Source of the DNA: a virus
IMG/VR virus record: IMGVR_UViG_3300025584_000449
Location: 1 to 64,000 of that record
DNA: 64,000 nucleotides
Direction: 5' to 3' (one strand)
The translations under genes and the position numbers were made by a program. This document shows, one piece after another, positions 23,687 through 25,237 of the stretch (its first letter is position 1; the number at the start of each line of letters is the position of its first letter). The notes beneath the pieces are model-generated. The model did not search any database, was not told the DNA's origin, and worked only from the letters and a program-made list of their open reading frames with translations.

Positions 23687-24193
23687 TTAATTATCGCAGT
23701 ACATTAGATGAAATCTTGTACATTCGTCTAATAGTACATCTAGTTGGTTAGCAACTACGTCAGCACTTGTGGTATTTAAATACCGCTTAATAGTTACTTT
23801 CCTTGAATTCCAGGAGTATCGAAAGCCAGATCTTTTATCAATAAAAGTATCTATGACTTTACCTGGAAAGATTTGTTCTAAAAATACTTTATATGAAGTA
23901 CCCTTAGATGTTTCGACTCTTCTAAAAGTAAGAGTCGTGTAGTTTATAGCCAACCCGAGATTGTAATTCTGTTCAAAAATCTCAGGCTCTACTGCTCCGA
24001 AGATTGCTCCAGATTCCTCTAAGATAGGAGTCAGCTTACCATAGTGCCCATAAGGAAGTCTAATCTGAAGTCTTGAAAGAGCGGGACCAAATTTTTCTTT
24101 AACTCTTAGGAACTCCTTAAAGGAATTTCTCCAAGCTGTTTGAGAAATTTCTTCCCCCGCGTCGGATTCAATAGTCGCATCCATTCTATCCAA
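23687..24193 (-). CDS. Hypothetical protein overlapping the RT 3' end; candidate retron partner
   Basis: 168-aa ORF with an 88-nt overlap with the RT in another frame. Confidence 0.55.
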   Translation of the reverse strand: MDRMDATIESDAGEEISQTAWRNSFKEFLRVKEKFGPALSRLQIRLPYGHYGKLTPILEESGAIFGAVEPEIFEQNYNLGLAINYTTLTFRRVETSKGTSYKVFLEQIFPGKVIDTFIDKRSGFRYSWNSRKVTIKRYLNTTSADVVANQLDVLLDECTRFHLMYCDN

Positions 24194-25029
24194 CCCCTTA
24201 GTTGTTGATATTCTTTAGTCGAGATAGTCTCTCCATCTCGTTTTAAGTTATGTAGCTTAGCTTGGAAATTACGCCATCTCCATCTCTCAACTGAAAGTTT
24301 TTCGTTTACTACTACGCCTGTAACTTTCATTCTACGGTTTTGTCTAGTAATTCTAGTCTTCTTGTAGTTTATTTTAAAACCACAAGATCGCGCTATCGTC
24401 TCTATTTCTTGTACCAAATTTTTAGGGTTTTTTGTAGTTTTAGTTTTACGACTAAAATTTACATCGTCAGCATATCTATGATATGTATAGCCTTCCCTTT
24501 TACTAAAGTTTTCTAACTTATAATCTAATCCTATGCAGATTAAATTAGCAAGGGCCGGGCTAGTCGGAGCTCCTTGTGGTACTTGATCGAAATAGGTTAA
24601 TAGTGTAGCTATAATGTTTGCGTCCGCAACATCACACTTAAAGTTAGGATTAATCTTTTTATATCTATTAAAAAGATATAACATACATTTCTTAACTCTC
24701 GTTATTTTAATAGAGTTAAAGAAATCTTTTAAATCCATACTTATTAATATTTTTGCCTTCTTATGTAAATTAGCTCCATCCTTTACATTCCTGTTTTTAA
24801 CAAAGCCATAAGCTTTTTTATGAGGCTCGAACTTATATAAGAATTTATATAATATTGCTTTCTGAACTGCTTTTAGTTCATCATCTGGTGCATCAATCCA
24901 TCTAGTCTTTCCGCTAGATTTTTTAATTGGAAATGACAAATAATGTGCATTCACAGAATTCGCCATTTTAATTAAATCTTTTTCTTTAAATCCTAAAATA
25001 TCGTAAATTGTTACTTTTTTTGTTGCCAT
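24106..25029 (-). CDS. Retron-type reverse transcriptase (307 aa)
   Basis: IKKSSGKTRWIDAP, GANLH (region X-like), DLKDFF, PQGAPTSP, YADD, VTG (region Y). Confidence 0.92.
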   Translation of the reverse strand: MATKKVTIYDILGFKEKDLIKMANSVNAHYLSFPIKKSSGKTRWIDAPDDELKAVQKAILYKFLYKFEPHKKAYGFVKNRNVKDGANLHKKAKILISMDLKDFFNSIKITRVKKCMLYLFNRYKKINPNFKCDVADANIIATLLTYFDQVPQGAPTSPALANLICIGLDYKLENFSKREGYTYHRYADDVNFSRKTKTTKNPKNLVQEIETIARSCGFKINYKKTRITRQNRRMKVTGVVVNEKLSVERWRWRNFQAKLHNLKRDGETISTKEYQQLRGWIEWMRLLNPTRGKKFLKQLGEIPLRSS

Positions 25030-25057
25030 AAAATAAACGGGGAGGTTACCCTCCCCG
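25030..25057 (-). terminator. Terminator-like hairpin between the retron ncRNA and the RT start
   Basis: CGGGGAGG-GTAA-CCTCCCCG followed by TTTATTTT and then the RT ATG. Confidence 0.65.
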
Positions 25058-25060
25058 CTC

Positions 25061-25237
25061 CAGTTCTACTATCTGTTGATTCAAGTCTTGTGATTTTCAA
25101 AACTTTCAAGAAGCTCCTTGAAACGTTTTGAAATTAATCACAAGGACTGAAAAGGTGAAAGATTGTATCAGAATGTCTTCTTTCATTTCGTTACTAAGCC
25201 TGATTTACGAACCGCAAATCTTAATGGTCTAGAACTG
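25061..25237 (-). ncRNA. Retron msr-msd RNA
   Basis: 8-bp terminal inverted repeat CAGTTCTA/TAGAACTG; unpaired G immediately after the 5' arm (25229); two msr stems (25202-25220, 25156-25185); long msd hairpin (25082-25149). Confidence 0.85.

Follow-up and report, generated by a model that had tools for sequence, protein, structure and literature searches.

Does a large phage carry a complete retron of its own and, if so, whom does that retron serve? The question is raised by the minus strand of a 64,000-nt stretch of viral DNA (the window; positions 1 to 64,000 of the IMG/VR virus record IMGVR_UViG_3300025584_000449), in which a preliminary description had noticed a retron-type reverse transcriptase (RT) with YADD, GANLH and VTG motifs, preceded by a 177-nt RNA with terminal repeats, a branching G right after the 5' arm, two msr stems and an msd of about 68 nt, the predicted template of a multicopy single-stranded DNA (msDNA). 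The comparisons reported below make it probable that the locus is a genuine retron, acquired once by the ancestor of a phage lineage and kept in all sampled descendants, in which RT and msDNA would act in phage conflict, a neighbouring MoxR-VWA gene pair and a 165-aa open reading frame (ORF) being optional.

The reverse transcriptase and its RNA

The best matches of the window RT in PADLOC, NCBIfam and the PDB are in each case retron models or retron RTs, which bears out its placement in the retron family. Sixty PADLOC retron RT models match the protein (2e-80 to 1e-49). RT_XIII ranks first (2.2e-80), types XI, XII and X score almost as high, and the RT_XIII match is split in two stretches of the 469-position model. 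In NCBIfam retron_St85_RT scores 4e-68, against 2.5e-22 for the group II intron maturase and 1e-11 for Drt2; the Pfam match is RVT_1 (1.9e-25), and no fused domain is present. The solved structures closest in sequence are the RTs of Ec86 (1.8e-31), Ec67, Kva2, Ec83 and Ec78, in this order. Ranks 1 to 12 are all occupied by retron RTs or unnamed RT chains, the first RT of other origin, that of the group II intron GsI-IIC, being 13th (4e-11).

Residues 31-294 align with the Ec86 RT, GANLH falling over NATPH, RYADD over RYADD and KVTG over KVTG; region Y reads RMKVTGVVVN. Region X, YxDD and VTG are the features by which Mestre et al. define retron RTs (PMC7736814). H89, the PQGxPxSP motif, Y186, D188, D189 and G238 are invariant in an alignment of 56 RT relatives, and A187 and A86 are each at least 90% conserved. 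Region X has the consensus DGAxxH in the clade of related phage RTs, the N of NAxxH being replaced by G, and was counted as an NAxxH motif, in which H is the residue most conserved. Judged by these residues and by the model matches, the window RT is a member of the retron clade with an intact catalytic core.

The 177-nt RNA encoded upstream of the RT is closed by the CAGUUCUA/UAGAACUG stem. Its minimum free energy (MFE) is -49.9 kcal/mol (z = -4.3), a stability attained by none of 200 shuffled sequences. Besides the msr hairpin a second, weaker stem is formed. The position of the predicted branching G agrees with the definition of retrons in PMC7736814. Rfam families, msr included, do not match the RNA; the small RNA tpke11 scores below threshold at 25013-25077 (28.6 bits, cut-off 43), which was judged a chance resemblance of terminator hairpins. 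A terminator scan finds 11 pairs, seven of them GC, in the hairpin at 25035-25060. Hairpins of this kind (-14 to -22 kcal/mol) recur at this position: besides the window, 8 of the 19 other loci with a canonical junction have one (L002, L007, L008, L009, L011, L024, L028 and L034), and most of these hairpins are followed by a U-rich stretch. Within the 179.9-kb genome the best match of the RNA outside its own locus is 14 nt long (E = 0.09), and a diversity-generating retroelement was rejected because the RNA has no repeat elsewhere in the genome.

RT relatives were gathered from metagenome assemblies and from IMG/VR, the latter by an alignment-based scan, as a single-protein scan gave none. Twenty loci have, just ahead of the RT, an RNA with a closing stem of 8-16 bp. 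The last base of a1 is A and is directly followed by G, and a2 begins with U and is directly preceded by G. This holds in all 20 cases for either G, and for the A-U pair adjoining the predicted branching G. The a1/a2 arms are made up by 17 distinct sequences, with compensating changes at stem positions 2-8. Of 31 non-redundant loci, 21 show a stem of at least 8 bp with both junctions ahead of the RT; the background frequency in the same loci is 12% for shuffles and 14% for other 400-nt windows, and the opposite strand yields 4 of 31. In L004, L015, L016, L018 and L025 the junction is another one, but the RNA has terminal stems of 11-18 bp, those of L016 and L018 differing by compensating changes.

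A hairpin with a 7-9-bp stem and a YG-NNN-CG loop is located 9-76 nt after the G in 19 of the 20 loci. In an alignment of 18 sequences, 93% of the cells of this hairpin are paired, as against 66% in shuffles and 37-49% with slid partners, and cells with double changes number 38 against 11. The rest of the RNA, msd hairpin included, is wholly different between relatives in sequence and in length (115-310 nt). Such msd variability is typical of retrons. Covarying a1/a2 arms, invariant Gs, a covarying msr hairpin and a variable msd together strengthen the assignment of the predicted RNA.

Most of what had been described beforehand for this locus is confirmed by these data. The RT ORF is real and its motifs are in register with those of Ec86; the terminal repeats form an 8-bp a1/a2 stem enriched over background; the putative branching G keeps its place after the 5' arm; two msr stems fold, one of them weakly. 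An msd of about 68 nt and an msDNA spanning about 25069-25155 are reasonable, and the 28-bp msd stem is within the range of 10-50 bp described for retrons. The structure of the RNA, conservation of which had been named as a point on which the assignment could fall, is retained among the relatives through compensating changes in the arms and covariation of the msr hairpin.

Table 1. Positions of the retron components and of the flanking genes in the window.
Feature	Coordinates	Strand	Remarks
msr-msd non-coding RNA, 177 nt	25061..25237	-	Fold z = -4.3; architecture recurs in 20 loci
a1 arm CAGUUCUA	25230..25237	-	Pairs with a2, 8 bp
Predicted branching G (2'-OH primer)	25229	-	Directly after a1
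Conserved msr hairpin GAUUUGCG-GUU-CGUAAAUC, probable RT recognition element	25202..25220	-	Covariation
msd hairpin, 28 bp with small bulges, main template of predicted msDNA	25084..25148	-	MFE structure
a2 arm UAGAACUG	25061..25068	-	Pairs with a1; G25069 just 5' is the predicted first template base
GC-rich hairpin with U run, terminator-like	25035..25060	-	Separates a2 from the RT start codon
Retron reverse transcriptase, 307 aa	24106..25029	-	Pfam, PADLOC, NCBIfam and PDB matches; invariant catalytic residues
165-aa ORF	23687..24184	-	Overlaps the RT 3' end by 79 nt; C-terminal ECxRFxFMYC
VWA protein, ViaA-like, 532 aa	25238..26836	-	Metal ion-dependent adhesion site DESGS; Pfam VWA_2 1.4e-07; NCBIfam ViaA 7e-29
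MoxR AAA+ ATPase, RavA-like, 379 aa	26849..27988	-	Pfam bpMoxR 2e-51, AAA_5 1e-25; NCBIfam RavA 1e-61

Distribution and descent of the retron

The virus record of which the window forms the first 64 kb is 179,902 bp long, its completeness being estimated at 89%. The genome carries 21 tRNA genes, a portal-like gene and the gene of a fused beta-beta' RNA polymerase (RNAP) of 2023 aa, and the large-phage origin assigned to the locus earlier is upheld. The presence of the retron was monitored with two independent markers, the RNAP N-terminus in IMG/VR loci and the glycosyltransferase encoded downstream of the RT (20316-21620). The RT adjoins the RNAP gene in all 23 IMG/VR loci with an RNAP at least 42% identical to that of the window. 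The RT of the clade is missing in 50 loci with more distant RNAPs, three of which carry a different, weakly related RT nearby. With glycosyltransferases of at least 39% identity, the RT is found upstream in 32 of 35 loci, the three exceptions being contigs with too little flank; it was found in none of 33 loci with more distant glycosyltransferases. The glycosyltransferase was itself considered as a partner and set aside: orthologues at or above 39% identity are exactly co-extensive with the clade, and a functional link can therefore not be told from common descent by co-occurrence.

In a tree of 146 RTs, made up by the phage clade, other viral contigs and the 80 nearest bacterial genomes, the 30 RTs of the clade are monophyletic (support 0.999), with no intruders. 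The nearest bacterial RTs, many of them myxobacterial, are at most 38% identical, and the open frames in which most of them lie are 430-550 codons long, in agreement with fused types. Distances among RTs and among RNAPs are modestly correlated (Mantel r = 0.42, a value reached in 168 of 5000 permutations), the RT evolving faster than the RNAP (mean identity 40% vs. 53%). A single acquisition, followed by retention in every sampled descendant, is indicated by the distribution of the markers, the monophyly of the RTs, their low identity to bacterial RTs and the correlation of distances. Universal retention is unusual for a defence-type gene. As the retron is kept at the same spot in every sampled relative, it seems to serve the phage itself.

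RTs outside the clade were met in other viral contigs. In two contigs of 175-181 kb (L033, 5626-9476; L041, 5698-9210) a retron-type RT precedes the gene of a RuvB-like AAA+ helicase by about 1.5 kb; the sister group of the clade, with weak support (0.51), is formed by these RTs. L125 (2451-5390), the RNAP of which is 36% identical to that of the window, carries a different RT of 294 aa, located 4.6 kb from the RNAP gene; only 51 nt separate this RT from the ORF that it directly follows, which is 667 aa long and matches no family.

No tyrosine integrase was found in the carrier genome or in five relatives 97-100% complete; serine recombinases were not searched for, and for this reason the lineage, made up by phages of about 180-210 kb with their own RNAP, is described as probably virulent. 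The nearest isolates found, Vibrio phages D181, D148 and D69 and Salmonella phage Arash, share about 35% portal identity and are not among the RT matches listed; near-identical DNA was not found in GenBank phages. The RNAP gene is a single open frame in the window (29362-35433). In L006, L019, L025, L092, L093 and L133 the frame stops after residue 44, 63 or 166 and similarity continues downstream, which suggests introns, inteins or split genes. A ThiF/E1-like ORF (PF00899, 2.5e-16) resides outside the window, at C1:120504-120863 of the genome. In L002 (12778-15545) the glycosyltransferase gene is followed by cupin, cytidylyltransferase-like, HAD-phosphatase-like and PfkB-kinase genes, not found at the equivalent place in the window, which look like a nucleotide-sugar pathway feeding the transferase.

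Neighbouring genes and alternative roles

The minus strand of the window reads, in order, MoxR, VWA, the 177-nt RNA, the terminator-like hairpin, the RT and the 165-aa ORF. Known retron effectors were not detected on flanking genes by PADLOC or Pfam, and to this extent the earlier statement that no known effector is adjacent stands; the MoxR-VWA pair directly upstream had been overlooked. Walker A (GPPGTAKS) and Walker B (FLDEI) are intact in the MoxR protein, and neither MoxR nor VWA is a partner in any of the 13 types of Mestre et al. (PMC7736814).

The pair could define a new retron type, the RavA/ViaA-like proteins being effector or thresholding partner and the RT-msDNA complex holding or licensing the ATPase-adaptor pair, which on being triggered would act on a target. 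The VWA stop codon directly adjoins a1 in the window, the order MoxR-VWA-RNA-RT is found on one strand in most loci of the clade, and the pair is present in 15 of the 23 loci marked by the RNAP. Against this, three near-complete genomes of the clade keep RT and RNA and have no MoxR anywhere. Phages devoid of the pair are scattered over the RT tree, in at least four distinct positions, the RT being lost in no member of the clade; by this tree MoxR-VWA appears to have disappeared on at least four occasions, with the retron kept each time. VWA and a1 are anywhere from 0 to more than 1 kb apart, with other genes inserted, about 60 MoxR-VWA loci of IMG/VR outside the clade have no RT within 7 kb, and next to the 80 nearest bacterial RTs no VWA match and only two weak MoxR-like matches are found. 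In view of the repeated loss with the retron kept, and of the many pairs devoid of an RT, MoxR-VWA was rejected as the obligatory effector. The pair is best described as a frequent, possibly co-transcribed and dispensable neighbour, and is unlikely to be the true partner.

A recurrence of the same neighbourhood, which speaks for a partnership, is provided by two gut viral contigs, L001 (495-5253; MT838163.1) and L059 (5584-10713), where a cassette is formed by WYL, retron-type RT, alpha-beta hydrolase (UPF0227), MoxR and VWA genes. An 11-bp inverted repeat spans about 243-281 nt upstream of the RT in both. These RTs are phylogenetically separate, and not sister to the clade.

A core function, in which msDNA or RT would take part in phage DNA metabolism (for instance in priming, in recombination or in controlling the adjacent polymerase and glycosyltransferase modules), is about as doubtful as the MoxR-VWA partnership. 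The RT is universally kept at a fixed locus between RNAP and glycosyltransferase, its inheritance looks vertical, and related RTs lie near a RuvB-like helicase in the 175-181-kb phages mentioned above. What speaks against it is the absence of conservation in msd sequence and length, the lack of a complementary site elsewhere in the genome, the faster evolution of the RT relative to the RNAP, and the absence of the RT from more distant relatives with the same RNAP.

Still less probable is an abortive-infection-type retron for superinfection exclusion, the toxin being the 165-aa ORF or a gene located elsewhere. Characterised retrons do pair RT and msDNA with a toxin (PMC7736814; PMC12548924), and the ORF, which overlaps the RT and for which ATG 24184 is the most likely start in place of the TTG at 24193 given earlier, is conserved in the nearest relatives. 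It is missing, however, from most of the clade, and in L027 and L352 a glycosyltransferase gene follows within about 240 nt of the RT. No effector gene is therefore common to the clade, given that homologues of the ORF are confined to the nearest relatives and that the passage from RT to glycosyltransferase is in some loci almost direct. Sequence and fold searches found no toxin-like domain in the ORF: it has no match in Pfam, PHROG, PADLOC or PDB sequences, and a Foldseek search of the PDB with its AlphaFold2 model (mean predicted local distance difference test score 69) gave no significant fold (best E = 0.019; template modelling score, TM, at most 0.27). Look-alikes in the structure atlas reach at most 0.87 with TM 0.55, and a weak resemblance to CesT/YbjN-like proteins (TM 0.53) is, like these, a lead only. 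A complex prediction of RT with the ORF scored 0.00, which gives no verdict and was not used as evidence.

That the locus is no retron at all, the RT belonging to a diversity-generating retroelement, a group II intron, another defence system or a decaying passenger, is highly improbable, as the group II intron and Drt2 models do match but retron models are ahead by 40-60 orders of magnitude, template/variable repeat pairs and Rfam matches to intron RNA are lacking, and the active site is invariant in 56 relatives.

Known systems and a proposed role

Ec86 (Retron-Eco1; 7v9u, 7xjg), the best-matching solved retron RT, shares with the window an msr-msd RNA upstream of the RT, a branching G after a1 and a long msd hairpin. 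It differs in being bacterial and in having a nucleoside deoxyribosyltransferase-like effector (type II-A; PMC7736814), no such effector being found in the phage, and identity is low. The orphan Ec107 (Retron-Eco5) branch is likewise composed of RT and RNA with no consistently linked effector (PMC7736814), but resides on bacterial chromosomes and in another RT clade; RT_Ec107-like ranks only 23rd on the window RT (7e-54). Retron-type RT genes are annotated, with neither RNA nor function, in the Staphylococcus jumbo phages S6, PALS_2, MarsHill and DC4 (PMC10638138). These are large virulent phages, as the carrier of the window retron probably is, and likewise encode a MoxR-like ATPase somewhere in the genome; identity to the window RT is, however, 24-29%, and the S6 RT ORF is about 500 aa long, with no MoxR within 6 kb. 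The literature searched holds no description of an msr-msd RNA in these phages.

RT_XIII being the best PADLOC model, type XIII retrons (Mx162, Mx65, Sa163 and Ne144; RT clade 10 of Mestre et al. 2020) were also compared. Many of the nearest bacterial relatives are myxobacterial, and type XIII is also noted for vertical inheritance; its partners, WH-SWIM (DEDE) and HEAT/ARM proteins, were not found among the flanking ORFs by Pfam, PADLOC or PHROG. The Ec67 RT (9lm3, 9i2f) is the second-best PDB match (7.5e-30) and belongs to a retron on a phage genome. Ec67 and Ec73 reside on temperate P4-like retronphages as prophage cargo for the lysogen, with effectors fused or adjacent (Toprim in Ec67). 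Unlike these, the window retron has an unfused RT and is fixed across a large-phage lineage in which no tyrosine integrase was found.

Several points weigh against the reading favoured here, that of a retron retained for phage conflict. Region X of the window RT is GANLH rather than NAxxH, and the gene has no obvious Shine-Dalgarno sequence and lies behind a terminator-like hairpin. The canonical A/G junction is missing in 10 of the 31 loci, and L020 has no convincing RNA. The stems in the pair tables were selected for pairing, and percentages of paired cells are partly the product of construction; it is therefore the background frequency and the slid and shuffled controls, rather than the raw percentage, that carry the evidence. 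The retron is known here from sequence alone, msDNA, branch and transcript being predicted; the case for a role in conflict is drawn from msd variability and analogy, and a core phage function would account just as well for the fixed position and the universal retention. On the other side, a housekeeping template is unlikely, since the parts for RT binding and priming are constant and the msd is entirely different from one relative to the next. The variability of the msd, the lack of a genomic match and the faster evolution of the RT would fit phage conflict better than sequence-specific housekeeping. Among the roles put forward earlier, inter-phage competition, msDNA as a decoy for host DNA-binding defence proteins and titration of host retron effectors, none is favoured over the others by the data.

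A retron kept for conflict could operate as follows, each step being modelled on characterised retrons (PMC7736814). The RNA would be a minus-strand transcript, probably joined to the end of the MoxR-VWA message, as a1 begins right after the VWA stop codon. The terminator-like hairpin that follows a2 would restrict read-through into the RT gene to a fraction of the transcripts, and may, speculatively, set a high ratio of RNA to RT. The RT would dock on the conserved msr hairpin, and the a1/a2 duplex would present G25229, the 2'-OH of which may serve as primer. Copying would start at G25069 and proceed through the msd hairpin towards about 25150, the predicted product being a branched hairpin msDNA of about 80-90 nt, corresponding to the plus strand from about 25069 to about 25155. 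The RT-msDNA complex may then work for the phage against the host or competing phages, as a decoy or a sensor, with MoxR-VWA and the small overlapping ORF as optional accessories rather than obligatory effectors.

Retrons have been studied as bacterial abortive-infection systems and as genome-editing tools, and their presence on temperate retronphages has long been known. The known phage carriers of retrons are temperate elements serving the lysogen. A literature search of incomplete coverage found no retron RNA in a virulent large phage, no phage lineage with a fixed retron, and no retron linked to MoxR or VWA. Universal retention of a retron with no recognised effector implies a benefit to the phage itself. 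We tentatively propose that large, apparently virulent phages may have domesticated an effector-less retron, the hairpin DNA for instance drawing off, as a decoy, a defence or DNA-binding sensor of the host, or protecting the phage from rival phages or satellites, and MoxR-VWA being an add-on used by some; this is a possibility rather than the expected outcome.

The recurring RT/MoxR-VWA neighbourhood is also a caution, as it is not by itself evidence of a functional system. With about 1.2 kb, a defined predicted branching G, an msr hairpin and an msd, the locus is a compact test object, and the roughly 20 natural RT/RNA pairs of the clade, in which priming elements are conserved and msd sequences very different, are useful for engineering. 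If large phages have indeed domesticated the element, retrons would not be bacterial anti-phage devices only.

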